A stretch of 57,179 nucleotides of DNA, from contig CAZHOI010000004.1 of NCBI GenBank assembly GCA_964534365.1, forward strand, positions 1-57,179, read 5' to 3'. The position numbers and the translations under genes were made by a program. The notes under the pieces were generated by a model. The model saw nothing but the letters and a program-made list of their open reading frames with translations. It had not been told where the DNA came from and ran no database searches. Below, piece by piece: positions 4,635 to 48,127 of this stretch (position 1 is its first letter; every line of letters begins with the position of its first letter). The DNA comes from an uncultured Candidatus Saccharibacteria bacterium (GTDB lineage Bacteria; Patescibacteriota; Minisyncoccia; Phycocordibacterales; SW-6-46-9).

Positions 4635-6122
4635 ATGATTTCTGCTAGTAGCGCTTTTTTACTGTTAATTTTAGTCGGCCTATTAGGGCTGGCATTGGGC
4701 TATCTATTGCGGTTTTTACAAATGACAGTTGCCAAAGCACAATTGGAAGTAAATGTTAAAAAGAACCTCTTAAAAGCCCGGGAACAGGCAGCTGACATCA
4801 TCGCCAAAGCCAACACCCAAACCCTTGACCTTAGAACGGAGCTGGAGGCCAAACGCCAGCAATTACGCCATGACAAACTGGCCCTTGATGAAAATAAGGC
4901 TGAGTTGCAAGAACAAGTCAAAAAAAACGCCAGTCGTAAAACCGAACTTGATGATTTAGTCTCTAATTATAAAAAGTCTTTGAACGATATCGCGAACAGT
5001 AACCCTAATCTAGACCTATCGGATCTGCGGCAGCAAATGACTGACCTGGTTGATTTGCAACTGGAAAGCCATTATCAAACAAAAAAAAGTGCCCTGGAAA
5101 TAAGTCTCGACGATGATTTAAACAATATAATTCAGCAAGTACTTCCCCAAGTTGCTAGAAGAACGGTGCGAAATAATACCAGCGTTACGATCAACGTGTC
5201 GGGTAGCGAGATTGGCAAAATCATTGGCAAAGATGGTGTCAATATAAAATCCTTTGAACGCTATGCTGGGGTGGATTTGGTGATTGATGATGTTGCAAAC
5301 ACTGTTACCGTTTCCAGCCTTAGCCCTAAACGAAGGCTGATTGCCAAACAAGCCTTAATTGAATTGTTGGAAGACGGTCGAATTAACCGCGACCAAATTT
5401 ACCATTCAGTTCGTGAAGTTGAGGATCGTTTACTGGCCGAGGCCACTAAATTAGTCAATCGAGGGTTGCGCGACCTCAATCTAGATACCAATCCGATAAT
5501 TACGAAAAATCCTGAAATTAAATCGCACTTGGTTAATTTATATTTTCGACATTCATATGGTCAAAATCAACTAGAACACTCACTTGAGGTAGCAGACATT
5601 GCAGGACGTATTGCTGCCGAGATTTTGCCAGATCAAGTTGCTGGGGCTAAATTGGTTGGATTGCTTCATGATTTGGGCAAAGCTTCAATCGGCAGCACAA
5701 ATCATGTTGACGAGAGCATTAAATTACTACAACAATATTCAGAGGTTCCAAAACCAATTCTAAATGCAATTGCCGAACATCATGACACCAAACCTGGTTC
5801 GGTGCTGTCAGCTATCTTACAAGCTGCTGATGCCATATCATCAGGCAGGCCAGGAGCCAGAAACCCGCGCTCGGATCAAGCTCTAATCAGGCAGGAAAAA
5901 CTTGAAGAATTGATTTCTGAGTATCATGATGTGGATAACGTATTTGCCCTATCGGGTGGACGTGAAGTCCATATCTTGATTCGTAACCGCAATTATAGTC
6001 AGTCAAACATGCGCCAATTGCTTACCAACATAACTAAAAAAATTCAGGACGAAAATCTTGCCTATTCACCGATTACCATTACCATGATCAGAGAGGACGA
6101 AATTGTCCAAAATCTGGCTTAA
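4635..6122 (+). CDS. rny: Ribonuclease Y
   Basis: N-terminal TM helix, coiled coil, KH (GKIIGKDGVNI), HD domain (HSYGQN..HSLEV, LLHDLGK, HH, AADAISSGRPGAR). Confidence 0.85.
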   Translation: MISASSAFLLLILVGLLGLALGYLLRFLQMTVAKAQLEVNVKKNLLKAREQAADIIAKANTQTLDLRTELEAKRQQLRHDKLALDENKAELQEQVKKNASRKTELDDLVSNYKKSLNDIANSNPNLDLSDLRQQMTDLVDLQLESHYQTKKSALEISLDDDLNNIIQQVLPQVARRTVRNNTSVTINVSGSEIGKIIGKDGVNIKSFERYAGVDLVIDDVANTVTVSSLSPKRRLIAKQALIELLEDGRINRDQIYHSVREVEDRLLAEATKLVNRGLRDLNLDTNPIITKNPEIKSHLVNLYFRHSYGQNQLEHSLEVADIAGRIAAEILPDQVAGAKLVGLLHDLGKASIGSTNHVDESIKLLQQYSEVPKPILNAIAEHHDTKPGSVLSAILQAADAISSGRPGARNPRSDQALIRQEKLEELISEYHDVDNVFALSGGREVHILIRNRNYSQSNMRQLLTNITKKIQDENLAYSPITITMIREDEIVQNLA

Positions 6123-7060: not shown

Positions 7061-7183
7061 CTCGCACAAAACTTGGAAGTTTGTAAGTTCGGGTCGCCAT
7101 AAGCGAACCTTGCACAGATTTACGCTGCAGATTGCGGGTCGCCATAAGCGAACCTCGCACAAAACTGCTAGCAGTTTTGTGCG
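7061..7183. repeat. tRNA-3'-end-like tandem repeats with hairpin spacers
   Basis: gggtcgccataagcgaacct exact at 7091-7110 and 7136-7155; ctcgcacaaaact at 7061 and 7154; perfect 28-bp palindrome 7156-7183. Confidence 0.8.
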
Positions 7184-7250
7184 GGTGGAGAGAATCGAAC
7201 TCTCGACCACAGCTTGGAAGGCTGTTGTTATACCACTTAACTACACCCGC
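7180..7250 (-). tRNA. tRNA-Gly (TCC)
   Basis: GCGGGTG..CACCCGCA acceptor stem, anticodon arm acagc-CTTCCAA-gctgt, TTCGATT T-loop; no encoded CCA. Confidence 0.95.
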
Positions 7251-15802: not shown

Positions 15803-15867
15803 GATAGTTAATTATACCAATTATTAAGTGTAGACTTTTGTGCTTTTTTTGCTATAATTGTGCAATC

Positions 15868-16143
15868 ATGGCTTTAACCAAGCGTCAAAAACAAAATACT
15901 ATTAAAGATATAAAACAGCACAATAACGATACAGGATCAACTGAAGTCCAAATTGCAATATTAACTAGACGAATCACTGAATTATCAGACCATCTAAAAA
16001 AGCATCGGGGTGATAATCATTCACGTCGCGGACTACTTAAACTAGTTGCCCAACGTCGCAAATTGGTAAAATACCTGCAAAAAACTTCTAAGAAGCGCTA
16101 CAATTTACTTGCTAAATCACTAGGTTTAAAGACTGTTTCATAA
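15868..16143 (+). CDS. rpsO: 30S ribosomal protein S15
   Basis: DTGSTEVQIAILT..I..L..HL..H..D.HSRRGL; start at MALTK, 9 nt after tataat. Confidence 0.97.
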   Translation: MALTKRQKQNTIKDIKQHNNDTGSTEVQIAILTRRITELSDHLKKHRGDNHSRRGLLKLVAQRRKLVKYLQKTSKKRYNLLAKSLGLKTVS

Positions 16144-16243: not shown

Positions 16244-16275
16244 GCTAATAGATTTGCCTGACAAATCTATGCCAT
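16244..16275. repeat. Dispersed intergenic palindromic motif, copy 2
   Basis: gctaatagatttgcctgacaaatctatgccat; matches 12111-12140. Confidence 0.7.
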
Positions 16276-16345
16276 GAGGCAGATAATTTTCTAAAAATGA
16301 CTAAAATTTACTTTTAATCATAAATTAAAAGATAACGAAACAAGC

Positions 16346-16894
16346 ATGACTGTAATTAAACATCCTGATCAACGTGTGGCCGTATTTATTGACACTCAAA
16401 ATCTATACCACAGTGCCAAAAACCTTTATCGTGGAGCGCGAGTTAATTTTGACGAGGTCCTCTGGGGGAGTGTTGGAAATCGAAAACTAATAAGGGCGAT
16501 GGCATATGTCATTGCTACTGAAGGGGGTGAAGAAAATGCTTTTTTTGAAGCGCTAAATAATATGGGCATCGAAACCAAAATTAAAGATCTGCAAATATTT
16601 GGTGGTGGCGCAAAAAAGGCTGACTGGGACGTTAATCTAGCAATTGATGCCATAATTATGGCCCCAAAACTGGATGCAGTAATCATTGCCTCGGGTGATG
16701 GCGATTTCATTCCCCTGGTTAATTACTTGCAATACAACGAAGGCTGCCAGGTAGAGGTGGTATCATTTGGTAAATCAACCTCGGCGAATTTAATCGAAGC
16801 TTGTGATGATTTTATTGATATGGATGAAAACCCAGGCGCTTATTTGATGAATTACCGCAGTAGCAAGAGTAATGGTAAGTCAAAAGGGAAATAG
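16346..16894 (+). CDS. NYN domain (LabA/DUF88, PIN-like) protein
   Basis: VAVFIDTQNLY, KKADWDV.LAIDA, SGDGDFIPLV, S.NLIEACDDFID. Confidence 0.9.
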   Translation: MTVIKHPDQRVAVFIDTQNLYHSAKNLYRGARVNFDEVLWGSVGNRKLIRAMAYVIATEGGEENAFFEALNNMGIETKIKDLQIFGGGAKKADWDVNLAIDAIIMAPKLDAVIIASGDGDFIPLVNYLQYNEGCQVEVVSFGKSTSANLIEACDDFIDMDENPGAYLMNYRSSKSNGKSKGK

Positions 16895-17184: not shown

Positions 17185-19122
17185 ATGTCAGATTCTATTC
17201 AAACTATTTCCTATGGCCAATCACAAATTAAAATCGATTATAACACCGGCGCGCATCACGCACATGGTTCGGTTATCGTATCCCGCGATGGCACCAGCGT
17301 TATCGTTTGCGCTACTTTCGGCCCTGATCCAGTAAATGATGAACTCAGTCAAGTTCCTTTGCAGGTTAATTACCTCGAGCCCTGGCAGGTAAAATGTGGA
17401 GATAAGAGTTGTCGCTCCTCACAATTAAGTCCAGATACTCAGGCAGCAAGATTAATTGATCGATCAATCAGGCCCCATCTGCCAGCTGGATTACAGCACC
17501 CGCTTAACTTGACGGTACAAGTATTGGCGAGCGGTTCGGCTGATATTGATGCCCTGTCAATTATCGGCAGCTCAATTGCGATTTCTAGGACTGGCCTGGA
17601 TTGGTCAGGGCCAATTGCGGCTAGTGCGGTTGAAATATGTCAAAATTATGATTTTCATATTAATGAAAAATCTATTAACCTAGCCGGGCGGCTGATGATG
17701 TCTGGATCAAATAATCTGGCCACTATGGCCGAATTTAAAGGGGTCGAGCTCTCGGAGGAAGTAGTATCTAAGGCATTGGTTCAGGCACTAGAAGCTAATA
17801 ATGCTTTTATCGAGGCCCTAAATAATAATAAAGAAACAATTGAAGATGCTAATGAAACAATTTTAAATATTAACAAACTAGCCGCCGAACATCAGCCTGA
17901 CCCAGATAAGTATGCAGAGCGCCTGGGGACTGGATATCGCGAAGACGGTCGCGGTAGCAAAGAATTAAGAGAGTTGGTGATTAAACCAAGCTACCTCGGT
18001 GGCGCTCACGGATCAGCTAAGCTTCAGCAGGATGAAACGACTGTTATTGCTGCCCTAACATTGGATAATCCGATCTCGCCTTTGGAGGGTCGTGCTAGTG
18101 CCGCGGTTAATGATGTTAAAAACACCAACCGCTTTATTGCAGAATGTCTGATAAATCCCAATGCGGCCGACCAGATGAATCAAACTAATCTGGCTTCTAT
18201 AAAAGAACATGATAGCGGCAGCTTACTTTACCAAGCCCTAGTGCCAGCACTGCCTGATGAAGGCGATTATCCATACCTGATCAAATTGGCTAGCCAGGTA
18301 ATATCCTCGGACGGATCGGCTGGCGTCGCATCAGTTGCAGCGGGATCCCTTGCCCTATATACGGCGGGGGTGCCGGTAAACAGTTTATGTGCTGGGGTAA
18401 ATATTGGATTGGCTGGATCAACAGATGAGCCTGTATTGTTAACTGATATTACCGACAGCGAGAAAGATCATGGTCAAATGCGCCTCGCAATTGCTGGAAC
18501 TACCAAGGGCATTAATGCTCTGCAGTTAGATACCAAAAATAATGGGGTGAGTTTAAAAAACTTTACCAACGCGCTTTCCAATGGCAAAGAAGCCAGAGCT
18601 GATATTATCGAGGCAATGCAAACTGCTGTAGCAGGTAGTGCCTATAACCATCCTGAAAATGCGCCCCTGATTGTTGAGATACCTCGCGAACATATTGGCC
18701 GATTAATCGGCAAAGGTGGTACTAATATCAGGCAAATTGAAGACTCTACCGAGGCCAAAATCACCGTAGAAAACAATCAATACGCTATTATTGAGGGCAG
18801 TAAAGACGCAAAAAACAAGGTGTTGGAAAAAATTGAAGCCGAAACTAGACATTATCATGTCGGCGAAGACTTCAAAGCTACAGTTCGCGAATTTCTGCCT
18901 TATGGCGCCATCGTCGAGCTGGAAGCAGGACGCGAAGCCCTATTGCACGTATCAGAATTACGTGATGCATATGTTGAGAAAACCGAAGATCTGTTAAAAG
19001 TAGGGGACGAAGTGCCGGTAACCATTGTCGAGACTTCCTCCGACGGAAGAATTAAGGTTTCAATCCGTGAAAAATACCCGGAATTTTTCAACGACTCCGC
19101 CACCACTCCCGATCAAATTTAA
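17185..19122 (+). CDS. pnp: Polynucleotide phosphorylase orthologue with degenerate active site (2 RNase PH + KH + S1)
   Basis: ARLIDRSIRP, REDGR, HGSA, LQLDTK, KH (IGRLIGKGGTNI) and S1 (GAIVEL..LLHVSEL) retained; position after rpsO; catalytic motifs altered. Confidence 0.85.
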   Translation: MSDSIQTISYGQSQIKIDYNTGAHHAHGSVIVSRDGTSVIVCATFGPDPVNDELSQVPLQVNYLEPWQVKCGDKSCRSSQLSPDTQAARLIDRSIRPHLPAGLQHPLNLTVQVLASGSADIDALSIIGSSIAISRTGLDWSGPIAASAVEICQNYDFHINEKSINLAGRLMMSGSNNLATMAEFKGVELSEEVVSKALVQALEANNAFIEALNNNKETIEDANETILNINKLAAEHQPDPDKYAERLGTGYREDGRGSKELRELVIKPSYLGGAHGSAKLQQDETTVIAALTLDNPISPLEGRASAAVNDVKNTNRFIAECLINPNAADQMNQTNLASIKEHDSGSLLYQALVPALPDEGDYPYLIKLASQVISSDGSAGVASVAAGSLALYTAGVPVNSLCAGVNIGLAGSTDEPVLLTDITDSEKDHGQMRLAIAGTTKGINALQLDTKNNGVSLKNFTNALSNGKEARADIIEAMQTAVAGSAYNHPENAPLIVEIPREHIGRLIGKGGTNIRQIEDSTEAKITVENNQYAIIEGSKDAKNKVLEKIEAETRHYHVGEDFKATVREFLPYGAIVELEAGREALLHVSELRDAYVEKTEDLLKVGDEVPVTIVETSSDGRIKVSIREKYPEFFNDSATTPDQI

Positions 19123-19176: not shown

Positions 19177-21030
19177 ATGGCAACCAAAATCAAACCAATC
19201 AGTAGTAATTCAAATCCTCAATCATCGGTTAGTAATGCCGGTGTTCAAACACAAATATTGCCCAGCCGCACCATGGCCAGCGACGCCGATCGTGCCCATA
19301 AAATCGAGGCCGATCGCCAACAGGCCTCACAAGACGCTATTGCCGAAATTAAAGAACTGGAAAGGGCTTTGTCACAAAATGATTCTGATAAAAAGCCAGT
19401 AGGAACTGATTTAGAGCGTCATACACACTCACAAAAAAATCAACATGATAAGTTTAATTCTAATGAAGATTTAGACAAGAACAGTATCCAGAATAAGATC
19501 AGTAATGAGGTTGATAAGGTTGACACTCCAAAAATGGTAAAAGGCGACGATCAAATTGCGGCTAATCCAGATAATAATAGCAGTCTTGTCACTGCGCTAG
19601 ATTTGGATTTGAATAGTTCGGACTCCGGTTTAGAGCCGATGTTTGACAACCGTGATATCAACAATGATGCTGCTATTGGTACAAAAAAAATAAAGGCAAT
19701 GGGCGGCAATGATGATGAGGTTAGGCCTGAAAATAACTTTGCTAACGGCGATGTTACTACCATTGGTAATATTAAATCTAATCGATCTAATTCAGCACCC
19801 AGCTCCCAGCAACCTAAAAGCGCTGATAGGAAAGCTCTTGATTTGGAAAAATTAGCCCTTACCAATAGCCAATCTACTGACAGTGATGATGCATCAAAAA
19901 CCTCTCGTGATGGTTCTGATGATCAAGATAGTGGTGACAAATCCAATGACAGTAATCATAAAGCCTCTAAAGCTTCGCCAGCAGCTGAGAGCCAGTTCCG
20001 AACCAGTAAAGCTAGTCAATCTAGCGATTCAACCAGAAAAGAAGCAGCAAAAACTAAAGACAGTAAAGAGGAAGAGTCTAGTGATCCAAATAAAACCAAG
20101 ACTACATTCAGCGACAGTCATCTGGTGCGGGTAATCAAAGATGAAGAGGAGGCTGTCATTGAACCTGCTGCTGACACGGTTTCAAATCACGAAGATATTC
20201 GCATCACTACTTTGCGCAAAGAAATCGTAAAAGAAGAAAAAGCAAAACTAGGTTACATCCAGCAGCGGTCCGAATTCACCAGCAAAGAACAACCAATTCG
20301 TCATCAGATCGAAGATTTAAAGCATAAGTTTGAAAAAGCTAAATCCGAGCTGGAACCGTTTCAAAATAAACAACAATCTATTGAAGCCAAGATCACTCAA
20401 ACCGAACAATCTGAAGAGTCAGCCGCAACCCCAGACGAGCGCCATCAAATCGAGAGTCAGCGCTGGCAACTAGAAGACGAGCGCCATGAACTAGAACAAC
20501 AAAAATGGCAAAAAAGCAAAGCTGCCGAGGCGATTGGTTTAGAAATAAAAGACAAAGAGTCTGAACTTGCTAATATCCTTGACGAAGCTAGGTCAATTGA
20601 CGAAGCGATAGAAAATTCAAATCAGCGAGTTCGACAACTAGATTTAGAGATTACCCTGGTAGAGTTAAGTGATCAAAAAGATGCCTTGGAAGAGAAATGG
20701 GTTAATTTGAACGAACAAAAACGCCAAGCCGATAAACAATTAGAGGAAGCGGTTCAGAACGAGCAGGTAATCGAAGAGCAGATTGATCAACTGCGACAAA
20801 ATGCAATTGAAACCAAAGATTTATCAGTCAAGCATGAATTCGAAGAGGAAAGGCGACGACTATCATTGGAACGTCGAAAACTAGAACAAAAACGGTGGAA
20901 ACTAGAACAAAAAACTACTGCCACACAGTCACAAATCGAGAGCCTGAAACCGCAGTATCAACAGGCCCTTGATGCCGAAAACGAGGCCAAACAAGAATTG
21001 CAAAATATCAAGCCATCCAACAAAAATTGA
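19177..21030 (+). CDS. Hypothetical protein: low-complexity S/D/N-rich N-half, long coiled-coil C-half
   Basis: 617-aa ORF; tataat at 19158; recurrent W-containing heptads (RWQLE, QKWQ, EKW, KRWKL). Confidence 0.7.
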   Translation: MATKIKPISSNSNPQSSVSNAGVQTQILPSRTMASDADRAHKIEADRQQASQDAIAEIKELERALSQNDSDKKPVGTDLERHTHSQKNQHDKFNSNEDLDKNSIQNKISNEVDKVDTPKMVKGDDQIAANPDNNSSLVTALDLDLNSSDSGLEPMFDNRDINNDAAIGTKKIKAMGGNDDEVRPENNFANGDVTTIGNIKSNRSNSAPSSQQPKSADRKALDLEKLALTNSQSTDSDDASKTSRDGSDDQDSGDKSNDSNHKASKASPAAESQFRTSKASQSSDSTRKEAAKTKDSKEEESSDPNKTKTTFSDSHLVRVIKDEEEAVIEPAADTVSNHEDIRITTLRKEIVKEEKAKLGYIQQRSEFTSKEQPIRHQIEDLKHKFEKAKSELEPFQNKQQSIEAKITQTEQSEESAATPDERHQIESQRWQLEDERHELEQQKWQKSKAAEAIGLEIKDKESELANILDEARSIDEAIENSNQRVRQLDLEITLVELSDQKDALEEKWVNLNEQKRQADKQLEEAVQNEQVIEEQIDQLRQNAIETKDLSVKHEFEEERRRLSLERRKLEQKRWKLEQKTTATQSQIESLKPQYQQALDAENEAKQELQNIKPSNKN

Positions 21031-30505: not shown

Positions 30506-33500
30506 ATGAACTCTGGACAACTCATGAAATTATTATCAAAGACTATCTCGCTTACCCTGGGTCTAGTTTTTGCGATAGTTTCTTTCATGCCCCAATATGC
30601 CGCAGCTCAAATATCCAGCCTAGAACCCCAACCCCCACGAGCGCCCAATGTAGAGCCTGGCGCGCTGCAATCAATTGATCTAGAAGACACCAATGTGGGT
30701 GCCAGTCTGGTTACTGGTGGCGCCTTTGCAATTGATGAATGTGTCGATCAACCACTGGGTGAGTTTAGCGGCATTCTGTCCAGTAACATGACCGCCATGG
30801 CCACAGAGTTCCTAGGTGGTGCGGGAGTAGTAGATGAAGTTAGCAATGCAGTTGCTACAGCCACAAATATTGCTAATGCTGCCTTGGGCTTGGCTCAGGT
30901 GGGGGCTAAACTAGGCCCATTAATTGGTTTACCTCCGGGCATAGGTGACTTTTTAGGTGGTGCAGAAAAAACCCAGGACGATCGTACCTTCAATGCAATT
31001 TTGCAGTCTTCAACTGAACTAACAAAACTAAATGCCAAAATTGGCGAGGTTCAGGCACGAGGCACGAGTGATATATTGGGGGTTTTGCAAAATATGCAAG
31101 TGTCAGACAATTGTTTGGACCGAGTGGTATTTATTCAGGCCCAAAATCTACTGTTCGACATGCGCAATCAGGCGTCCGAATGGATCGTGTCCGGATTCGA
31201 GGGCGGAAATCCAGGTTTTGTACAAAATATTGAACAGAGGGAACGCAATCTGGCTGCCGCGCAATGGTTAAATTTCCTTGACCCAGATCAAGGATCATTT
31301 AGCGGCATTTGCTCTGCCTTTCGAGAGGACGTAGTATTTAATGTCCGACAAGCCTATAACAGATCATTTGGCGGTGATCCTGCCCAAGTCATTCCCGAGG
31401 TAGATTTATCAACTACCGAGGAACTGTTGCTGCGCCGAGCAGTCACCGATGATGAAGGGGATGGCTGTGCGTTGAATCAAATTACTGGATCAGAAGAAAA
31501 TACCCAGCGGTTTCTAGATGGCGAATTTGTTACCGGCAGTTGGGAAGGATGGTTTACATTGTTTAATGACCCCAATTCTAATCCCAATACTGCCTCCAGG
31601 GTTTATACCCAGCAATTAAACAATTCAATTCAGAGTGAATGGGATGCTGATCGACGCCGACTAGCCTATTCTGGTGGTTATTTAGATGATCGACGTTGTA
31701 TTGACGAAAATGGCAATGCGTCCGAAGTTGGCTTTGCGGGAATATGTGCTGACGGATCAGACCCAATTACCGTAACCCCAGGTAGTGCGGTAGCCGCTGT
31801 AATCGAGGGCTTGGCCCAGGCTGATATTGATAGAGCAGTAATGGTGGACAAAGTTGGCGAGGTTGTAGAATCAATTGGCATGACCTTGATAGGCCAACTG
31901 TTTCCAACTGGATCACAATCACGCGCCCCTGGACTAGCTAACCTTAGCGCGCAGTCATTTGAACAGGCTTTTGCGCAAGCTTATGAAAATACTGCTAATT
32001 TTGCTGGACCGAACCCTGATTCATTCAGCATTGCCATGTTAGATCGACAAGTTTCCACCGAAGAAGCCATGTATTCAATGTTTTCTGATATTTGGGAATT
32101 ACGCAACTCGCAGGGGTTTACGGATGTAGAGCAATGTATTGAAGGGAATTCAAATTTGCAGACCTCATTGCAGGAACTAGATGCGTTGATTGAAAGTATT
32201 ATCCCAGGATCACAGTCTAGCCTTGAAGCCAAATATGATTATGAACCACCTGGGCAATATAAAGTCGATTGGGCAGGGAACGATTTTGAGTGGCTAGAAG
32301 AAAAAGTCTACGGTTTAGAAACTTGCGAAATAGATACTTATGGTGATTATGAGACAGAGATCGATCAATTATTAGAAAGATTTATTGATCGACCGCAGTT
32401 TTCGTTCAGGATGCCTACCGATGGTGATAGTTGGCAAATTTCTATATGTGCACCCCTCGGTGACGGAGGCCGTACCCAATTTTTTAAAATTGGTTACTCT
32501 CCACCAGGATATAGAGAAGCCAATAACAATCTAAAGGTTGATTGGAATGGATTACCTTTTAACTGGAAGCGATATGACCCGTTCCAAAAAGAGAATGCTT
32601 ACGAGATAAGGCAATGTGACACAAGAACCGAAGGAGAATTTGGTTACTCTGCAGGACAAAGATTGTCTACAGACGACGTAAGAGGTCCAAGTAGCTCTGA
32701 CTGGTCAGCCATCTATCCCATCGATGGAAACGAACGCAAAGGAGTGAGAAATTGGTGTGTATATTTTGGGCATTTATTAGGTTTTGCCGAATGTACAGGT
32801 GACAATCAGGATCCTGAGTCAAGAGAGCAGATATCGATAGGTATGAGCAGGGGCTTAGAGTACTTACTAGGAACTAAGCTTAATTATTCAGTTAATGGCA
32901 GTGGCTTATTAGAAATAAATAACTCTAACTGGTACCGCAATCGCTGTGCGCTAGAGGGAATAGGAGATGTAGAAGGAGGGAAAATATATGCAGCCTATAA
33001 AGGATATTACGATCAATCTACACAAGGTTCAGCTGCCTATTCTCCTCAACCAAAACCAACTTCATTAGATGTACTACTGGCTAATATCGCCGTTACCCTG
33101 GATGGTCTGCCAGATTTAATTGCTCCGCAATCAATTATTGACGAAGTCAGACCGGCAGGGGCAGCCGATCGTGCTGCAATTGAAAATGGGTTGTATGACC
33201 TGCGTCAACAATTTAATAGTGGTACCCCCAGTTCGCTAGTCGCGCAATCATTTTATGAACTAGCCCAAAATCGTAACTTCCATAGTCGCGAGGACGTTGA
33301 AATAGCCCGATCTGGTTACGAGCAGATCCTTAACCTATATGAGCTGATACTAGAACAATCCGAGGACTGTCAGACAACACCAGGTGGGGGGGTTACTGAC
33401 ATTCTGGCAGATGGTGACATTGCCGTTGATGGCATTAACACCTACCAGGACGAGATTGATCTGCCAAATGATTACGAGCAGCCAATTACTATTTCCTGGG

Positions 33501-34843
33501 AGACCGAATATTGTGACCCAAATATCGGTGTTTATGTATATCGCAATGGGGTCGAAATTGCCTCGGGCCTATCAGGGTCAGAATTGGATGACACCTTGGT
33601 TGGAGTCGATGCGACCGCTGTTTACGAGCTGTATTGTGGTCGACCTGATGAAACCATCGGCCGTCAGGCCCGATCAACTGATGATGGATCATATAATCAA
33701 AGTAATCGAAACAGAGGACTAGTCGCCCAACTATGGACTATGATTCTACCTACTGCCCAGGCCCAGGTAAATAGTCAGTCCAGCAATAATAAGGCCAGGT
33801 TATTGGACTATGTGATCGTAGATTCTAATTTAAGCGCCGGTAGTGCCGGCAATAATCCAGGCACTATTGCCCAATCCAGCGGAGTATTAACCATCAATGG
33901 TCGTAATAATAATTTCTCGATCGATTCATCGCGGGCTGATCTAAATATATCTTGGGTAACTGATCAATGTCCTACCGATTTAAACCTGTATCGGGACGCG
34001 ATCAATCTATACAGCGGCGAGGCTGACAGTGAATACCGCGACAATCGCATTGGATCCCCTGATACCTATCGTTACGAGCTCTACTGTGGCCAACGTCAAC
34101 CCCATTCGCGTGCTGATCGCGCTTCGGGATCATCTACTACAACCAATGTTAATGGCCAGGTTATCAGCAAATTATTAGACAGCATTCGTGTTAGCGTGAT
34201 TGATGATACTGATCCCGTTGTGATCGAAGATGACGACACCAATGATCCAGCTGTGGGTGATGATAACGAATCAGCTGACGATCAAACTGGTGACAGCCCT
34301 GAACCAAATGGCATTGATGATGATGGGGATGGTTGCATTGATGACACATCCCTAGATTCAGATGGCCAGTGCGACAATGGTGGAGCGTATAATGCCCCTG
34401 AAGAGAATACCGCAAATAATTTGGATGATGACAGTGACGGCTGTATTGATGATTCCTACTTGGACCCGGACGGCAGTTGTAATGATGGTGGCGATTATAC
34501 CCGTGGCGAAGACGAGACAGACCTAGATGAGAGCGCAAACAACATTAATGCAGTTGCCCTGACCAATGGCATTGATGATGATGGGGATGGATTAATTGAC
34601 GAAGACGACGAGGCCAGCCTACCGATTACTGATTTGTCTAATTTAGGTCAGGTTGAAAATGAGGATGAGTCGCCAATAATCTGGTGGTTGTGGCTGCTGA
34701 TACTGCTGTTGATTATTTTGATAGGATACTTTTTATATCGTCTGATTCGATCGCGTCGCAATAAAAATCAAGTTATCGAAATTAATGCTGCCAACGCCGC
34801 CCGACAAACAGAGGTGACGGTGCCAACCCCTGCTAAAAATTAG
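30506..34843 (+). CDS. Large secreted/surface protein (1445 aa) with tandem beta-rich domains, acidic DDDGDG repeats and C-terminal TM anchor
   Basis: Signal peptide (..YAAAQ), two ISW.T..C...YELYCG domains, three N(G/N)(I/L)DDD(G/S)DG repeats, WWLWLLILLLIILIGYFLY followed by RRNK. Confidence 0.75.
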   Translation: MNSGQLMKLLSKTISLTLGLVFAIVSFMPQYAAAQISSLEPQPPRAPNVEPGALQSIDLEDTNVGASLVTGGAFAIDECVDQPLGEFSGILSSNMTAMATEFLGGAGVVDEVSNAVATATNIANAALGLAQVGAKLGPLIGLPPGIGDFLGGAEKTQDDRTFNAILQSSTELTKLNAKIGEVQARGTSDILGVLQNMQVSDNCLDRVVFIQAQNLLFDMRNQASEWIVSGFEGGNPGFVQNIEQRERNLAAAQWLNFLDPDQGSFSGICSAFREDVVFNVRQAYNRSFGGDPAQVIPEVDLSTTEELLLRRAVTDDEGDGCALNQITGSEENTQRFLDGEFVTGSWEGWFTLFNDPNSNPNTASRVYTQQLNNSIQSEWDADRRRLAYSGGYLDDRRCIDENGNASEVGFAGICADGSDPITVTPGSAVAAVIEGLAQADIDRAVMVDKVGEVVESIGMTLIGQLFPTGSQSRAPGLANLSAQSFEQAFAQAYENTANFAGPNPDSFSIAMLDRQVSTEEAMYSMFSDIWELRNSQGFTDVEQCIEGNSNLQTSLQELDALIESIIPGSQSSLEAKYDYEPPGQYKVDWAGNDFEWLEEKVYGLETCEIDTYGDYETEIDQLLERFIDRPQFSFRMPTDGDSWQISICAPLGDGGRTQFFKIGYSPPGYREANNNLKVDWNGLPFNWKRYDPFQKENAYEIRQCDTRTEGEFGYSAGQRLSTDDVRGPSSSDWSAIYPIDGNERKGVRNWCVYFGHLLGFAECTGDNQDPESREQISIGMSRGLEYLLGTKLNYSVNGSGLLEINNSNWYRNRCALEGIGDVEGGKIYAAYKGYYDQSTQGSAAYSPQPKPTSLDVLLANIAVTLDGLPDLIAPQSIIDEVRPAGAADRAAIENGLYDLRQQFNSGTPSSLVAQSFYELAQNRNFHSREDVEIARSGYEQILNLYELILEQSEDCQTTPGGGVTDILADGDIAVDGINTYQDEIDLPNDYEQPITISWETEYCDPNIGVYVYRNGVEIASGLSGSELDDTLVGVDATAVYELYCGRPDETIGRQARSTDDGSYNQSNRNRGLVAQLWTMILPTAQAQVNSQSSNNKARLLDYVIVDSNLSAGSAGNNPGTIAQSSGVLTINGRNNNFSIDSSRADLNISWVTDQCPTDLNLYRDAINLYSGEADSEYRDNRIGSPDTYRYELYCGQRQPHSRADRASGSSTTTNVNGQVISKLLDSIRVSVIDDTDPVVIEDDDTNDPAVGDDNESADDQTGDSPEPNGIDDDGDGCIDDTSLDSDGQCDNGGAYNAPEENTANNLDDDSDGCIDDSYLDPDGSCNDGGDYTRGEDETDLDESANNINAVALTNGIDDDGDGLIDEDDEASLPITDLSNLGQVENEDESPIIWWLWLLILLLIILIGYFLYRLIRSRRNKNQVIEINAANAARQTEVTVPTPAKN

Positions 34844-34940
34844 ATGGTTTTAAACGGTCGTACCGCTTAAAAGTAGTGGTAGTCAACCTAATCCTTGAAC
34901 CCGATCAATCAGGCCTTGCTATCGTGATATTATAAGGGCA

Positions 34941-37481
34941 GTGATTAAATGGTCGCGATTTTTATCAGTGGTTTACCATACAGTAGCGCGTTTTTTTAAA
35001 ACAATATTTTCCCGACTGCAATTATTTCTGACCAAAATAATTCAGTATAAATTTTCGATCATTACTATTGCTGTGGTCGCATTTATTGCGCTGCTGCCAG
35101 AAACTGCCTCGGCCAACATTAACTTTGGCTGTGGTGGGGTTGGAATAGGTGACGCTTTCCCGGATTTTCCGTGTTTATTAGGGCAAACCATGCTGCAATT
35201 AACCTCGGTATTTGCCTTTATTGCCGGTAATCTACTGGATTTGGTGACTAAATTATTTGTATTTGAAATGTCTACCACCCTGGAACAAGGGCAGCTGTTC
35301 GTTACGCCAGAAACTGGCGAATGGGCCGGGGTACCGGTATATCGCGCGATGTGGTTTATCGTGCGCGACCTTGCCAATTTGTCATTTATTTTTATTCTAA
35401 TTTATGCATCAGTGTCGATGATCTTTAACAATAAATTTGGACTAGATGCCAAAAAGATTGTCCCGCAGTTGGTACTAGTGGCAATACTCATGAATTTTTC
35501 ACTGTTTTTTGTACAGGTAGCCACAGATTTTTCCAACTATATTGCGTACCAGTTCTTTACCAATGTCGAAGTCCAGGTCTGGCAAAATGACGAGAATGAA
35601 GAGATTTTGATTGATCCTGAAACTGGCGAGCCGGCTTTTGTCCAAATCGGATCTACCGAATCAGGAGCCGCGACCCTGTCTGACATCATAATGAACGTTA
35701 CCAAGGTCACCGCGCTGGTGGCCAGCCCTGCCGATCTGGCCAGTTCGCAGGCAGCCAGTCGTAGTGCCGAGCTGGATCGTCAGCCCGGATTTGCGTTTGG
35801 ATTTTTTGCCAGTATATTCGTATTTTTTGCCGGTTTGGTTATGCTGGCTGGCGCATTTTTACTATTTCTGCGGTTTTTCATGATTTTGATATTTATGGTG
35901 TCGGCCCCAATTGCCTTTGCCTCTAGCATTGTCGAAGGAGGTAAAAACAAAGATAGTGGCAAAGGGTTGTTTAAAGGCTGGTGGTTGCCTGGACTAACCA
36001 ATCAATTGATTTTTGCACCGGCATATTTTGGACTGCTATATCTGGCCCTACAGTTTTTGCAAACGATTACTGATGCGGGGTTGGGCGCGCCCAAAGACTC
36101 GACCTTTGCCTATTGGGTTCAAAACGCCTTTATATTTATTGTGTCAGCTGCATTTCTGATTGCCGCTATATGGTATGCCAAAAGACTCTCGATTGCTGGT
36201 TCTAAACTAGCAGTAAATAACACTAAACGCATGTTTGCAGCAGGAGTTTTGGGTGGAGCTGGATTAGCAGGGCGTCAAACTATAGGGCGCTTATCAAATC
36301 GCTACCTAAACTCTAACCAAGATCGACTAAAACAAAGAATTGCAAGCGGTGGGGTTAGCGGTAAAATTGCCCGAATGCAATTAGATGCAGGTAAAAGGAT
36401 GACCAAAGCCAGTTTCGACGGACGACTAGCCCTTGATCGTATCCCAGGAATTAGAATGAATGAAATCTCTTATGGCAATCGTGATAGCCTCAAGAAAGGA
36501 TTCGGGGGAAGAAGAGCCGAAAAACTTGAGAAAGAAACCGAGAAGGTCGTAGACGTTGCACAAGCTCTAAATGAAAAGCAACGCGACCGTTACGCGAATA
36601 GGTTGATGTCACAAAAAACAGGGCTAAAGGGACTGTTCCAATTTATAACTCACAGTCAAGATGTTGAAACAGGAAAACTTGAACCTCGGCCCGGAGCAAA
36701 AAAACTACTGAACAAATATAATAATATTGTTATGGGCTTGGGCGGTTCACTAGAGGACAAATTACTTGAAGGAAGTCCTGGTTTAAGTAAGCGAAAAACA
36801 GCTGCTGCAGTAAATAGAACCAAGAATTTCTTAGCGCGTAATGAGCCAGTGTACGGTCAAGGGGCTGAGCCCGATTGGATTACAAAAGCGCAAGAAAGAG
36901 AAATAACCAAAAGGAAACATCAGGCTGAGGTTTTAATCGCAGAAAACGAACGAGAGGCCGCCACCTTAGAGCGCGAGATGGCTGAGCGTCAGGCAGAAGC
37001 TAAGAAACATGCTAACAGGCTTAAAGATTTACGTAAGAGGCTTGAAAGAGCGAGAGAGCTAGGAAATGAAACTGAGGTCAACCGATATGAAGGTGAATTG
37101 AATGATGAGCAGCAAAGATTGGCTGGAATAAACAATCAAATAAATACCAGGAACTCTCGGCTGAATACACTCAAAAAAGACACCGCCAGAATTCAAAAGG
37201 TGAAAAGTAGAAGAATAAACTCGGCAAGGGATGCATACAATCGAGATAGGACACAGATGCGTTACTCTAATGGAGGTTATATTAATTACAAATTAGGAAA
37301 CGCAATCTCTGGATCAAATTGGGAAAGAACTAAAACAAGTCTCAAGAAAAGAAAGGACGCAGATGAATATTTCAACCGTATGAAAGATGTCGTTAGTGAA
37401 GGGAACTTGAATGCTCCGGAAAAACGAACCGCTGCTGACGCTGGAGACTCAGAGGATTCTTCGGATGGAAACGAAAACTAA
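34941..37481 (+). CDS. VirB6/TrbL-like polytopic membrane protein with long basic coiled-coil C-tail
   Basis: W..VRDLAN..FIF, LV.VAIL.NFSLFF, multiple TM segments; context next to PrgI and VirB4. Confidence 0.7.
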   Translation: MIKWSRFLSVVYHTVARFFKTIFSRLQLFLTKIIQYKFSIITIAVVAFIALLPETASANINFGCGGVGIGDAFPDFPCLLGQTMLQLTSVFAFIAGNLLDLVTKLFVFEMSTTLEQGQLFVTPETGEWAGVPVYRAMWFIVRDLANLSFIFILIYASVSMIFNNKFGLDAKKIVPQLVLVAILMNFSLFFVQVATDFSNYIAYQFFTNVEVQVWQNDENEEILIDPETGEPAFVQIGSTESGAATLSDIIMNVTKVTALVASPADLASSQAASRSAELDRQPGFAFGFFASIFVFFAGLVMLAGAFLLFLRFFMILIFMVSAPIAFASSIVEGGKNKDSGKGLFKGWWLPGLTNQLIFAPAYFGLLYLALQFLQTITDAGLGAPKDSTFAYWVQNAFIFIVSAAFLIAAIWYAKRLSIAGSKLAVNNTKRMFAAGVLGGAGLAGRQTIGRLSNRYLNSNQDRLKQRIASGGVSGKIARMQLDAGKRMTKASFDGRLALDRIPGIRMNEISYGNRDSLKKGFGGRRAEKLEKETEKVVDVAQALNEKQRDRYANRLMSQKTGLKGLFQFITHSQDVETGKLEPRPGAKKLLNKYNNIVMGLGGSLEDKLLEGSPGLSKRKTAAAVNRTKNFLARNEPVYGQGAEPDWITKAQEREITKRKHQAEVLIAENEREAATLEREMAERQAEAKKHANRLKDLRKRLERARELGNETEVNRYEGELNDEQQRLAGINNQINTRNSRLNTLKKDTARIQKVKSRRINSARDAYNRDRTQMRYSNGGYINYKLGNAISGSNWERTKTSLKKRKDADEYFNRMKDVVSEGNLNAPEKRTAADAGDSEDSSDGNEN

Positions 37482-38725: not shown

Positions 38726-38758
38726 GCACTTGATAATTATTGTATAATTATCAAGTGC
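38726..38758. repeat. Perfect 15-bp inverted repeat over the prgI -10 box and GTG start
   Basis: gcacttgataattat-tgt-ataattatcaagtgc. Confidence 0.9.
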
Positions 38759-39174
38759 AGCATCAAACTCCGCAATTTATCGATATCGAAGACAAGGTGG
38801 TTGGACCGTTTACGGTCAAGCAATTTATTTATTTGATCGCCGGGGGAGGGGCCGCGTTTTTGCTGTTTCGATTTTTGCCATTTTTCTTGTTTTTAGTGGT
38901 AGCAACTCCTATTGTGTCGTTATTTTTGGCCCTGGCATTTTACAAACACAATGAACGTCCGTTTGTTCATTTGGTTGAGTCAGTTTTTAAATATTTGGTC
39001 AACACCAGGTTATATCTGTGGCGCCACCGCAAGCCAACTGACGTCGCCCGTGAACAGGCCAGTGTGCAAGCACCGCAAAAAACCAAAGTGGTTAATTCAG
39101 GGGCGGGCATGGGATCATCAAAGCTAAAGGATCTTTCTTGGAACCTAGAAGTCAAGAAAGAGGATCTTTCTTGA
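38755..39174 (+). CDS. PrgI family protein (T4SS VirB3-like membrane component)
   Basis: PQFIDIEDKVVGPFTVKQFIYL, two TM helices, LAFYK.NERPF; GTG start 6 nt after tataat. Confidence 0.85.
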   Translation: MQHQTPQFIDIEDKVVGPFTVKQFIYLIAGGGAAFLLFRFLPFFLFLVVATPIVSLFLALAFYKHNERPFVHLVESVFKYLVNTRLYLWRHRKPTDVAREQASVQAPQKTKVVNSGAGMGSSKLKDLSWNLEVKKEDLS

Positions 39175-39179
39175 CTTCT
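39147..39179. repeat. Perfect 15-bp inverted repeat over the prgI stop
   Basis: agaagtcaagaaaga-gga-tctttcttgacttct. Confidence 0.9.
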
Positions 39180-39194
39180 GACTTGAACCAGAAC

Positions 39195-39581
39195 ATGTAC
39201 ACGGACAACACAAGTATAAAACCAGATGGATTTAGATTTCTTAAGTGGCAAATTTATGACGATGCTCAAAATTTATATTTAGAAATAAATACAATCACTA
39301 AAGATCTGCCAAAAGCTATGCGATTTGAAGCCACCTCTCAACTGTTACGATCAAGCCATTCTGTAGTTTTAAACATAGCTGAAGGAGCTGGAAAAGAGTC
39401 CGATAAAGAACTTAGGACGTTTTTGTCAATTTCAATGGGTTCGCTGTATGAAACCGTGGCTTGCCTTGATTCATTGGTGAAACTTAACTTGATTAAAGAA
39501 AGTGAATTCCAAAATTTAAAGGCTCGTTACAATAAATTAGCGTCTCAAATAGGAGGTTTTAGAAAGTCTTTGAAACAGTAG
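39195..39581 (+). CDS. Four helix bundle protein (second copy, divergent)
   Basis: FRFLKWQIY, SQLLRSSHSVVLNIAEGAG, FLSISMGSLYETVACLD; start set to the ATG at 39195. Confidence 0.9.
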   Translation: MYTDNTSIKPDGFRFLKWQIYDDAQNLYLEINTITKDLPKAMRFEATSQLLRSSHSVVLNIAEGAGKESDKELRTFLSISMGSLYETVACLDSLVKLNLIKESEFQNLKARYNKLASQIGGFRKSLKQ

Positions 39582-39608
39582 TTATTCTTGTCCCAGTTCT
39601 TGTCCAGG

Positions 39609-39636
39609 TAACTTTTGCTATAATTAGCAAAAGTTA
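39609..39636. repeat. Perfect 12-bp inverted repeat over the -10 box and start of the 39636 gene
   Basis: taacttttgcta-taat-tagcaaaagtta. Confidence 0.85.
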
Positions 39637-40271
39637 TGGCTGAACCCCTCAAAGCACCAGCGACGCAAAACTTTGTTCCGGTGAAAGAAATCCGTGATGG
39701 GGTAGTGATATTGAAAAATAATTCATTGTGTGCGGTATTATTGGCTTCATCACAAAACTTTGCCCTTAAATCCGGCGACGAGCAGACCGGGGTATTAATG
39801 CAATTTCAAAATTTTCTAAATTCACTGGATTTTCCAGTACAGATTGTAGTGCAATCACGCAAAGCTGATATTCGACCCTATATCCAAATGTTGGAAGAGC
39901 GCCTGAAAACTCAAACCAATGAACTGTTACGGGTGCAAAACTATGAATACATCCGATTTGTGCAGTCGTTCGTTGAACAGGTAGATATTATGAAAAAGTC
40001 ATTTTTCGTAGTAGTACCTTATAATCCCGCTATCGCAGACACTACATCAATCACCTCCTTGGTCAAAGGTAAATCAACTGATGATCAACTAACGCTCGAG
40101 CGCTTTGAAGAGTTCCGCACCCAGCTAAATCAGCGATTGGCTATTGTCGAGTCAGGACTTAATCGTTCAGGTATTCGCACCTTGGCGTTAGGAACCGATG
40201 AACTGATCGAGTTGTTCTATCACACCCTAAACCCTGCTGATGCTACGTCAAATGCCCCAGTAAGCAGCTAG
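39636..40271 (+). CDS. VirB4/TraC-associated protein (resembles the N-terminal part of conjugative ATPases)
   Basis: TQ.FVPVKEIRDGVVILK, S.NFALKS.DEQ, FLNSLDFPVQIVVQSRK.DI.PY; lies directly upstream of VirB4. Confidence 0.7.
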   Translation: MAEPLKAPATQNFVPVKEIRDGVVILKNNSLCAVLLASSQNFALKSGDEQTGVLMQFQNFLNSLDFPVQIVVQSRKADIRPYIQMLEERLKTQTNELLRVQNYEYIRFVQSFVEQVDIMKKSFFVVVPYNPAIADTTSITSLVKGKSTDDQLTLERFEEFRTQLNQRLAIVESGLNRSGIRTLALGTDELIELFYHTLNPADATSNAPVSS

Positions 40272-40378
40272 CTGCTTACTGACAACTAATAAAATCTGAG
40301 TCGCTTAGTGATTTCTTAGATTGTAAGTAGTTAGTTGTAGGTGGTAGGAGGTTAAAATTAGATGCTATAATTTTAACC
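40258..40378. repeat. Gene-less palindromic cassette between the 39636 gene and VirB4
   Basis: 24-bp perfect palindrome 40258-40281; nested stems; 7-mer array 40321-40348; 11-bp inverted repeat 40350-40360/40368-40378. Confidence 0.8.
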
Positions 40379-40380
40379 AC

Positions 40381-46383: not shown

Positions 46384-46964
46384 ATCTTAAAGTTAAAGGT
46401 TTTGGTATCGGTACCAAATTCACTAATGTTATTTAGCTCTCTAGGGTGTTTATGCAAAACTATTTGATAGTTGCTACCGTAGTTTACACATGGGGCTTCA
46501 TAACTTTGATAGGATGCTTTTTGGGAAAATGATTCATTGTTTAACGAGCGGGCAACGACCTCGCCGGTGTCAATTGATTTGATATAAAATGACAAATAAC
46601 TTTGGTTTGAATAATTACTATAGGTTATTGGCAGGGGTTGGTCATTGCATTTGTATGCTTCAGACAACATTTTGCTTGAAATAGCATCGGTGTAAACGGT
46701 GATAAAGTCCGTGGTTTGGCTTGGATCACCCAATGATGCGATTATTATATTGTCACTTACTAATTCAATATCATTATTGTCTGGTTCAGCAATTGACTGG
46801 CTGGCAAAACCGGATTGATCGATGTCAAATGATTGGGTAGGGCCGGTTGTGTTATCGCCCTCCTCGGTAAAGCTGACTCTGCCAGTTTGGCTTAGAAATA
46901 ACACTATAAATATGCTTATAATGACCATTAAAACTCCGGTAATAATTAAAAGTTTTTTATTCAT
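46380..46964 (-). CDS. Hypothetical membrane-anchored protein convergent with the pilin fusion
   Basis: KKLLIITGVLMVIISIFIVLFL anchor; stop overlaps the pilin-fusion stop by 4 nt. Confidence 0.6.
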   Translation of the reverse strand: MNKKLLIITGVLMVIISIFIVLFLSQTGRVSFTEEGDNTTGPTQSFDIDQSGFASQSIAEPDNNDIELVSDNIIIASLGDPSQTTDFITVYTDAISSKMLSEAYKCNDQPLPITYSNYSNQSYLSFYIKSIDTGEVVARSLNNESFSQKASYQSYEAPCVNYGSNYQIVLHKHPRELNNISEFGTDTKTFNFKI

Positions 46965-47443
46965 TTACTAATTATAACCTTACGATCTGCACCAGTTCCT
47001 TGTGACTGTGAACTCAAGTCTTTTGACTGAATGTAGCTGTGCACTATTCGGCGTTGAAAGGCAGTCATAGGTCGCAGTTCAATCGCGTTATCTTCAGCCG
47101 ATGACAACTGCTTTATGGACTTGTCAATCTCGTCTAATAGTTTTTTAACCTCGGCCTCTTGATAACCATCTACATCAATCACATAATTCTCCAACTCGAA
47201 ATGCGAGTCCAGACTATGCGCCCGACACAACACAATTTCGCGCACTATTTTCGACAGGGCTTGCAAATTGCGTCCGTCCCGCCCAATCAATAGCGCCGAA
47301 TCCGGTCCGGTCACGTTATATACCACATGCCCTGGGATTGCTGATGATTCCAGTGACACGCGATAGTCCTTAAATCCCATATGGGCTAGCAATTCGTCAA
47401 TTACTCGCTGGATTGGGGGCAATTTCGAGCGTAGACGATTCAT
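46961..47443 (-). CDS. jag: Jag/EloR-like KH-R3H RNA-binding protein (short form)
   Basis: LLIGRDGRNLQAL (KH), L.PMTAFQRRIVH (R3H), S.G.G.DRKV. Confidence 0.85.
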   Translation of the reverse strand: MNRLRSKLPPIQRVIDELLAHMGFKDYRVSLESSAIPGHVVYNVTGPDSALLIGRDGRNLQALSKIVREIVLCRAHSLDSHFELENYVIDVDGYQEAEVKKLLDEIDKSIKQLSSAEDNAIELRPMTAFQRRIVHSYIQSKDLSSQSQGTGADRKVIISK

Positions 47444-47526
47444 ACCAGACAGTATAAACTAGCCAACGTTCAACATAAACTATATCTAGCTAATCTACTA
47501 GGATCACCCGCTTTTGCAAGGAAGTA

Positions 47527-47546
47527 TACTGCGATATATCGCAGTA
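47527..47546. promoter_or_regulatory. 20-bp perfect palindrome, copy 1
   Basis: tactgcgatatatcgcagta followed 4 nt later by tgttataac. Confidence 0.8.
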
Positions 47547-47651
47547 GTAGTGTTATAACTACATAATTTACTAAATTAGCAAAGTATTTAATCTTCTTAA
47601 ACCCGTTAGGAGAATAAAAACTAAGACGTAAAACCATTAAAGAATGATGGG

Positions 47652-47671
47652 TACTACGATATATCGTAGTA
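47652..47671. promoter_or_regulatory. 20-bp perfect palindrome, copy 2, over the promoter of the TrpR-like gene
   Basis: tactacgatatatcgtagta followed 4 nt later by tgttataat (extended -10, 47676-47684). Confidence 0.8.
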
Positions 47672-47694
47672 ATGGTGTTATAATAGATTTCGAT

Positions 47695-48099: not shown

Positions 48100-48127
48100 G
48101 CTTTCACAACATAAGAGTTCATAATAA

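Follow-up and report, generated by a model that had tools for sequence, protein, structure and literature searches.

The pnp locus and its product

The window analysed here is a stretch of 57,179 nucleotides (nt) of contig CAZHOI010000004.1 (assembly GCA_964534365.1), from an uncultured Candidatus Saccharibacteria bacterium. The host belongs to a deep-branching and poorly sampled lineage of Patescibacteria (candidate phyla radiation, CPR) of a microbial mat. The window contains a pnp gene, the positional orthologue of polynucleotide phosphorylase (PNPase) at the rpsO-linked locus. Its product has lost almost all residues of the phosphorolytic centre and is probably retained as an RNA-binding platform.

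The open reading frame (ORF) starts with ATG and contains no internal stop codon (Table 1). A Pfam scan of the protein of 645 amino acids (aa) recognized RNase_PH (two stretches, 5.9e-30), KH_1 (1.2e-11) and S1 (6.8e-12), in the domain order of a canonical PNPase: RNase PH domain 1 (PH1), RNase PH domain 2 (PH2), KH and S1. In the same scan, PF03726 (the PNPase alpha-helical domain) was undetected and RNase_PH_C scored slightly under its cut-off. The best NCBIfam models are two PNPase equivalogs, both under their cut-offs (NF008805, 368.9 bits against 471; TIGR03591, 359.9 bits against 525), and the top matches in a sequence search of the PDB are PNPases (1.8e-67). The gene order xerC-rpsO-NYN-pnp-unknown is common to the window and to two further loci, L002 and L003. 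An earlier reading of the bare DNA (the original prediction) had proposed the same ORF limits, domain order and rpsO linkage, all of which stand.

Table 1. Features of the pnp gene and of its surroundings, in nucleotide positions of the window
Feature	Position	Strand	Basis
pnp orthologue, 645 aa, predicted PNPase fold with dismantled phosphorolytic centre (pseudo-PNPase)	17185..19122	+	ORF, Pfam, NCBIfam, PDB matches, AlphaFold2 (AF2)/Foldseek
PH1, aa 1-145; RBRI arginines retained, branch accelerated 3-4 fold	17185..17619	+	Alignment, rate tests
FFRR channel-aperture loop, replaced, aa 67-84, WQVKCGDKSCRSSQLSPD; CxxxxC pair, low model confidence	17383..17436	+	Alignment, AF2
C-terminal part of PH1 and shortened helical linker (about 43-45 residues versus 94-101)	17620..17928	+	Pfam, alignment
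PH2, aa 249-485, normally catalytic; 12 of 39 ultra-conserved columns altered	17929..18639	+	Column survey, rate tests
RBRII motif, RREIGHG replaced by IKEHDSG (R398I, R399K, G402D, H403S)	18199..18219	+	Alignment
Phosphate-binding motif, S(N/D)GSSS replaced by SDGSAG, aa 375-380	18307..18324	+	Alignment
Metal-binding region, DILGDEDHLGDMDFK replaced by DITDSEKDHGQMRLA, aa 421-435	18445..18489	+	Alignment
KH domain, aa 486-555, GKGG motif intact; rate equal to that of relatives	18640..18849	+	Pfam, alignment, rate tests
S1 domain, aa 556-630; 87-93% identity to clade relatives	18850..19074	+	Pfam, rate tests
rpsO (ribosomal protein S15), upstream neighbour; probable true start M11 (about 15868) by alignment to relatives	15838..16143	+	Pfam, synteny
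NYN-domain protein, between rpsO and pnp	16346..16894	+	Pfam, synteny
RNase Y homologue, about 11 kb from pnp	4635..6122	+	Window ORF scan

Replacement of the active site and of the channel loop

Residues were mapped by alignment to the authentic Pnp of Escherichia coli K-12 (from NC_000913), and their roles were taken from Nurmohamed et al. (2009; PMC2723993) and Stone et al. (2017; PMC5416783). The three motif replacements quoted in the original prediction (KEHDSG, SDGSAG and DITDSEKDHGQMRLA) are all present where it had placed them. The metal ligands of the E. coli enzyme are D486, D492 and K494 (PMC2723993), and all three are lost, being replaced by K427, R433 and A435. The prediction that the first metal-binding Asp had been kept was mistaken: the retained residue, D421, corresponds to E. 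coli D480, which is no metal ligand. In the phosphate site, S437 is kept (S378) and two of the three serines are lost (S438 to A379, S439 to G380). The three residues of RNA-binding region II (RBRII), R398, R399 and H403, have become I339, K340 and S344 (KEHDSG itself covers aa 340-345, nt 18202-18219). Other family-invariant residues near the site are altered as well (F343L, R345Q, G346D, Y380C and G402D). At the codon level, D492R and S439G are three-nucleotide steps, and D486K, K494A and H403S take two nucleotides each.

The loop that lines the channel aperture in PH1 is also gone, as had been proposed. In E. coli PNPase, F77 of the FFRR loop stacks on RNA, and mutants of R79 and R80 change binding and activity (PMC2723993). 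In the window protein, the region of F77, F78, R79 and R80, together with the following EGRP, is replaced by KCGDKSCRSSQLS, with lineage-specific deletions of three and two residues on either side. The pair FF77/78 is matched by SC, R80 by S78 and R83 by L81, and the counterpart of FFRREGRP reads KCGDKSCRSS, with a predicted local distance difference test (pLDDT) value below 50. The arginines of RNA-binding region I (RBRI) are kept (R89, R93 and R96, for E. coli R93, R97 and R100). The replacement loop also holds two cysteines five residues apart (KCGDKSC), present in no relative; in a trimer these would cluster round the three-fold axis at the channel mouth, where they could form a metal or redox site or be there by chance.

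Compensated frameshifts that mask canonical motifs were considered and ruled out. The other two reading frames are rich in stops and devoid of the canonical motifs, so the substitutions are genuine, and the absence of a frameshift, which had been noted before, is borne out. The active-site residues of PNPase are reported to be absolutely conserved in the examined bacteria and eukaryotes (PMC5416783), and in E. coli D492G alone abolishes both phosphorolysis and polymerisation (PMC2723993). Because the metal site (3/3), the phosphate site (2/3), RBRII (3/3) and the FFRR loop are all affected, and because a single substitution at one of these residues inactivates the E. coli enzyme, the window protein is, to judge from its residues, almost certainly unable to phosphorolyse or polymerise RNA.

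Of the sequence marks of a PNPase (EC 2.7.7.8), the window protein has homology and domain order, RBRI, the predicted tertiary fold and the rpsO-linked position; it lacks scores above the NCBIfam cut-offs, PF03726, the metal site, an intact phosphate motif, RBRII and the FFRR loop. By these sequence criteria, the protein is a PNPase homologue and positional orthologue, and not a functional member of EC 2.7.7.8. It combines a predicted enzyme fold with missing catalytic residues, one of the marks of a pseudoenzyme, a catalytically deficient homologue maintained by selection.

The extent of the loss was placed in context by a survey of 184 near-full-length PNPases, with 56 columns conserved at 95% or more. 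Of these columns, 15 are broken by the window protein, the highest number of all (median 0; the three clade relatives described below, 1, 1 and 2). KH and S1 contain none of the 15; PH2 contains 12, and the PH1 loop the other three. The next outliers are N-terminally truncated entries and one unrelated full-length protein, P0193 (711 aa, on a Logan contig of 2703 bp). This PNPase homologue is 30% identical and has other active-site changes (R93L, R319C, R345S, Y380C, R398A, D486N, K494Q, D508N and K510E), and retains D492, H403 and S437/S439. The protein may represent an independent dead PNPase, a sequence-based hint that such conversions recur.

A lineage-specific loss

Among about 15 billion proteins, three other lineages of the short-linker clade were found (P0001, P0002 and P0050), with 48-52% identity to the window protein. 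An exhaustive HMMER search over 1.84 billion representatives, clustered at 50% identity, contributed P0050 and one fragment. PNPase-pattern scans of GTDB genomes and JGI metagenomes yielded no further clade member, and a profile search for such members added none. For P0001 and P0002, the only two with a readable neighbourhood, the gene lies in the same xerC-rpsO-NYN-pnp-unknown synteny as in the window, which makes them positional orthologues of the window gene.

All three relatives retain every catalytic, phosphate-binding, RBRII and loop residue (26 of 26 scored sites). Six NYN-linked PNPases, found in genomes of Saccharibacteria, Kaiserbacteria and further Patescibacteria, also have the canonical residue at each of the 26 sites. 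Since the clade relatives and the NYN-linked CPR PNPases examined keep these residues, the loss is lineage-specific. NYN-linked PNPases occur at further JGI loci; against these targets, P0001 reaches about 350-374 bits, compared with about 180-196 bits for the window protein. The NYN-anchored scans returned CPR genomes with canonical PNPases and one contig of the clade (L017), which ends 32 codons into pnp.

The short inter-PH linker (about 43-45 residues, versus 94-101) is common to P0001, P0002 and P0050, whose active sites are intact, and N435>D also occurs in relatives that retain the active site. Both are therefore clade traits unrelated to the loss. The original prediction was right about the length of the helical domain; its tie to inactivation is ruled out. 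As a clade-wide trait, the linker of about 43 residues represents a minimal PNPase architecture that may merit biochemical study.

Evolutionary rates along the protein

Both PH cores are accelerated 3-4 fold on the window branch, and KH and S1 are not. Branch dN (nonsynonymous substitutions per site) is 0.42 for PH1 and 0.48 for PH2, versus 0.10/0.14 and 0.18/0.22 in the sisters; for KH it is 0.11 versus 0.12/0.05, and for S1 0.02 versus 0.02/0.03. Counts of unique changes in the window protein, P0001, P0002 and P0050 are 33/7/8/11 in PH1, 34/8/7/6 in PH2, 3/1/1/8 in KH and 2/2/1/4 in S1. In Tajima relative-rate tests with five outgroups, PH1 and PH2 gave p values of 1e-3 to 1e-5 (PH1 weaker with E. 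coli as outgroup), and the linker, KH, S1 and a P0001-versus-P0002 control were all non-significant. KH and S1 are under purifying selection as strong as in the relatives with intact active sites, in line with the conservation of these two domains that the original prediction had noted.

Fast evolution of the whole genome in this lineage was ruled out as the cause. Five neighbouring genes are equidistant among the three genomes (for instance 68/71/74% for the CCA-adding enzyme and 91/90/93% for the NYN protein), and for PNPase the corresponding values are 52/54 versus 64%.

The changes were also sorted by site class, in columns where the three relatives with intact active sites agree. At catalytic and FFRR sites, 92% are changed (12/13), against a core background of 36% (P = 4.7e-5); a separate Fisher test on targeted loss gave p=1.8e-4. 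Change affects 36% of the core columns that are 80-95% conserved and 43% of those conserved in the clade only, and 6% of the columns in KH/S1 (6/104). Among non-catalytic core columns conserved at 95% or more family-wide, it affects 16% (6/38), significantly less than the clade-only value (p=0.002). Over about 380 core residues, the only lineage-specific indels are the two that flank the FFRR loop. Neutral drift as large as the excess dN (0.2-0.3 per site) would be expected to leave 8-11 stop codons in the core, and the probability of none is at most 4e-4; the ORF is intact. The PH ring is relaxed with a conservation gradient still visible, and the residues of catalysis and threading are lost to a greater extent than would follow from relaxation alone.

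Predicted structure

An AF2 model built on a 47-sequence alignment has a mean pLDDT of 84.7 and a predicted template modelling (pTM) score of 0.81. Low confidence is confined to the region of the FFRR loop (67-84), to loops beside the RBRII site (299-313 and 331-336) and to the C-terminus. In Foldseek, the 50 PDB matches listed are all PNPases, with query-normalised template modelling (TM) scores of 0.62-0.74.

Role of the protein and alternative explanations

The explanation that we consider probable is that a phosphorolytically dead PNPase has been retained to bind RNA through a KH-S1 platform. Simple decay of the gene is unlikely, since KH and S1 evolve as slowly as in the active-looking relatives and the ORF is intact. 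According to this proposal, RNA would no longer be threaded into the ring and phosphorolysed, nor would nucleoside diphosphates be polymerised. The PNPase-like ring probably still folds and is predicted to display KH-S1 modules that bind single-stranded RNA. The role of the PH ring would be reduced to oligomerisation and scaffolding, which is consistent with its relaxed but non-zero constraint, and the Asp to Lys/Arg reversals probably fill or neutralise the metal pocket. A putative further step is the hand-off of RNA to the NYN protein or to RNase Y; the latter had been supposed to be adjacent to pnp, which its position contradicts (Table 1). The pseudo-enzyme scaffold of the original prediction survives as a dead enzyme kept for RNA binding, with the amendment that the scaffold part is under relaxed constraint.

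A more far-reaching version of the same idea is possible but doubtful. In it, the protein would be the first natural bacterial pseudo-PNPase and the only pnp orthologue of the cell, turned by adaptive change into a dedicated non-catalytic RNA-binding ring, comparable among bacteria to the inert core of the eukaryotic exosome. The metal pocket, formerly acidic and now cationic (K427, R433 and K340 beside R89/R93/R96), could then hold the 3' end of an RNA, or some anionic ligand, without cleavage, and the CxxxxC pore loop would place six cysteines round the trimer axis as a possible metal or redox plug.

Several observations weigh against a maintained platform. The ratio dN/dS was computed per domain by the Nei-Gojobori method (NG86) and by maximum likelihood; because dS is saturated (pairwise values above 2 or undefined), it is uninterpretable, and the analysis relied on branch dN. 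In severity, the core substitutions specific to the window protein match random nonsynonymous ones (mean BLOSUM62 -0.27 versus -0.35; sisters +0.4 to +1.0), so constraint on the core is relaxed. A bias of substitutions to loops was tested, and they proved equally frequent in secondary-structure elements and in coil; loop-biased or conservative substitution was accordingly dropped as evidence of fold maintenance. Such radical and unbiased changes fit near-neutral evolution of the PH ring, and the integrity of the core ORF could follow merely from the need to translate the downstream KH-S1. The AF2 model attests fold compatibility and is weak evidence of folding or trimerisation, because its alignment is dominated by canonical PNPases. 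The protein is known from one clonal population, in one sample or study, which means that conservation within the lineage cannot attest that the dead state is maintained. Three metatranscriptomes from this sample, too shallow to inform, gave no contigs on the operon. Finally, the scan that found no second PNPase, RNB or RNase J-type gene covers the window ORFs of at least 120 aa, within 57 kb only, and four of these ORFs were judged by precomputed Pfam matches only.

The radical and unbiased substitutions also speak for partial decay. Under this explanation, which we regard as rather unlikely, only the C-terminal KH-S1 is functional and the PH cores are a degenerating, essentially unconstrained leader, open because it is translated through, in a protein on its way to a small KH-S1 protein or to loss. 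The 3-4 fold acceleration of both cores, the change at 36-43% of the clade-conserved core positions and the single clonal population speak for it too. However, the ultra-conserved non-catalytic core, mostly Gly, structural residues and the RBRI arginines, has changed less than the clade-only positions (16% versus 43%, p=0.002), and catalytic sites have changed above background, a pattern that uniform neutral drift does not give. The scarcity of indels, the confidently predicted fold and the fact that no internal start or truncation has evolved also argue against a mere leader. A different cause of the loss would be a second active PNPase, or an RNase R/II or RNase J, encoded elsewhere, which freed the resident copy for sub- or neo-functionalisation after functional replacement. 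The window spans only 57 kb of the genome, and targeted remodelling of the active site is what would be expected once catalysis had become dispensable. Against this stand the ancestral xerC-rpsO-NYN-pnp synteny, by which the window copy is the original locus, the negative ORF scan and the failure of the exhaustive HMMER search of 50%-identity representatives to recover an additional clade-type PNPase; we hold such a replacement to be distinctly improbable. It concerns the cause of the loss and is compatible with a KH-S1 platform as the present role.

Persistence of enzyme activity is very improbable. Pseudoenzymes with migrated catalytic residues are reported in general terms (PMC10211241), and D428, D421, E426 and D449 remain near the old site, so that catalysis might have moved to other residues (for example to D428, beside K427) or switched to a metal-independent or hydrolytic chemistry. 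Yet metal, phosphate and RBRII sub-sites and the channel loop have been struck together, the inactivating effect of D492G in E. coli is that of one substitution (PMC2723993), the key carboxylates have become cationic Lys/Arg, which would repel Mg2+, and the new residues occur in no relative, hence no sign of a conserved alternative site. The chance that the gene looks aberrant because of a chimeric contig, or of an error in sequencing, assembly or binning, is practically negligible. An identical protein is present on four contigs, and four runs of one microbial-mat sample, assembled independently, gave pnp DNA that is 100% identical, at about 3-15x depth (10-15x in two). No variants were seen, and the gene is free of variant letters, indels and joints; artefact was ruled out on this ground. 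The changes are, moreover, in-frame substitutions spread over many codons with the alternative frames closed, and synteny runs continuously with the relatives.

The NYN partner and other features of the window

The NYN protein (L002:9212-9772 and L003:4718-5254 in the two other loci) shows 90-93% identity between genomes in which the remaining syntenic proteins reach 52-84%, and is still 63-70% identical across CPR classes; it has no NCBIfam match. NYN is followed by pnp at 6 of 11 GTDB loci and at 9 of 25 JGI loci. The protein is an unusually constrained partner, and the NYN-pnp linkage is ancestral and widespread across CPR. The linkage is not specific to the dead form, since it is also found with active-looking CPR PNPases.

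At L003:5323-5942, a Fic / MazE-antitoxin-like gene pair of opposite strand has been inserted between the NYN gene and pnp; neither the window nor L002 has it. In the rpsO-NYN intergenic region of the window (16263-16296), a stretch of about 30 nt reaches a k-mer depth 3-5 times that of the flanking DNA and links several different contigs in all four runs; single copy in the window, it is a short dispersed repeat of the genome or of the community. Directly downstream of pnp, 19177-21030 (+) encodes a coiled-coil-like protein of 617 aa, rich in Ser/Asp/Glu/Gln/Lys and without family match. It is syntenic in relatives (442-486 aa), 40-46% identical to the L002 and L003 copies and about 130 aa longer in the window.

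The RNase Y homologue (+) scores 261 bits against an NCBIfam cut-off of 454. A word-indexed search of a 5.8-billion-cluster collection recovered only six relatives above 45% identity, the rest being at about 33%, which underlines the isolation of the lineage. Its placement in Patescibacteria was based on relatives of the NYN protein and on gene content. The window also encodes a CCA-adding enzyme, exonuclease III, XerC/D, ClpP/ClpB, trigger factor, a block resembling a type IV secretion system and a dnaA-dnaN origin region. Two very large ORFs on the plus strand (30506-37481 and 38740-42180; 1445 and 846 aa) have no Pfam match and are followed by the type IV secretion-like block, with a PrgI-family protein and a TraG/VirB4-like P-loop ATPase, and by a '23S rRNA intervening sequence' protein (39138-39581). 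In the chromosomal origin-type region (46380-52530), jag(R3H)-yidC-rnpA (minus strand) faces dnaA-dnaN (plus strand). Two 27-nt direct repeats at 7090-7161 (96% identical, 45 nt apart) lie beside tRNA-Gly(TCC) (7179-7250).

Comparison with known systems and significance

With canonical PNPase (E. coli Pnp; PDB 3GCM/3GME/7OGK; TIGR03591/NF008805), the window protein shares the PH1-linker-PH2-KH-S1 order, the predicted fold, the rpsO-linked locus, RBRI, the KH GKGG motif and the S1 core. It differs in the replaced metal ligands, phosphate serines, RBRII and FFRR loop, in its scores below cut-off and in the halved helical domain, the last of these clade-wide. PNPase PH1 is itself an RNase PH duplicate without catalysis, which has structural and RNA-binding roles in the ring through RBRI and the FFRR loop (PMC5416783). 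That loss is universal and ancient; in the window protein, PH2 has apparently followed, leaving no active PH domain.

The closest functional precedent, by analogy, is the carrier complex of E. coli PNPase with Hfq and small RNA (sRNA), in which KH and S1 hold the RNA and its 3' end is kept out of the channel (PMC8294330; PDB 7OGM). It too is a non-degradative use of the PNPase trimer through KH/S1, exactly the parts conserved here. However, the carrier mode of the E. coli enzyme is reversible, belongs to an active enzyme and depends on Hfq, whereas the degradative mode of the window protein would have been abolished permanently; no Hfq gene was seen in the 57-kb window. Fungal Ssd1-type pseudonucleases of the Dis3/RNase II family offer another parallel: they are described as having lost catalytic residues in certain lineages and as persisting as RNA-binding proteins (PMC8097288). 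They resemble the window protein as 3'-5' exoribonuclease homologues without catalytic residues, and differ in their unrelated hydrolytic RNB fold, in being eukaryotic, in an RNA binding shown experimentally and in an inactive state that is repeatedly clade-wide. In the literature searched, no report of a naturally inactive bacterial PNPase was found, which is not proof of absence.

The RNase PH-like ring of the eukaryotic exosome core (Exo-9) has reportedly lost its phosphorolytic activity. This ring is heteromeric, ancient and universal in eukaryotes, and it threads RNA to the attached hydrolytic nucleases Rrp44/Rrp6. The likeness lies in the loss of phosphorolytic residues from an RNase PH-type ring capped by S1/KH, which in the exosome survives as an RNA-binding and guiding scaffold. 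In contrast, the window protein also lacks the channel-entry loop, belongs to a single recent bacterial lineage and has no attached nuclease known. The loss of that loop, as read from the sequence, argues against an exosome-like threading of RNA to a nuclease, and the NYN protein and RNase Y are tied to pnp by genomic proximity only.

To our knowledge, the question of a catalysis-independent function of PNPase has so far been addressed only with engineered mutants. Whether PNPase has physiologically important roles independent of catalysis, sRNA chaperoning and carrier complexes among them, is an active question (PMC8294330, PMC4748814). A natural orthologue without catalysis or threading, with KH and S1 under strong selection, would amount to a separation-of-function allele made by evolution. 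Its comparison with the active-looking sister P0001, 52% identical, would show what a non-degrading PNPase ring does, and would also show how a minimal CPR cell handles 3'-5' RNA decay without active PNPase. The window protein would also provide a parallel among bacteria to the way in which the ring of the eukaryotic exosome lost its activity.

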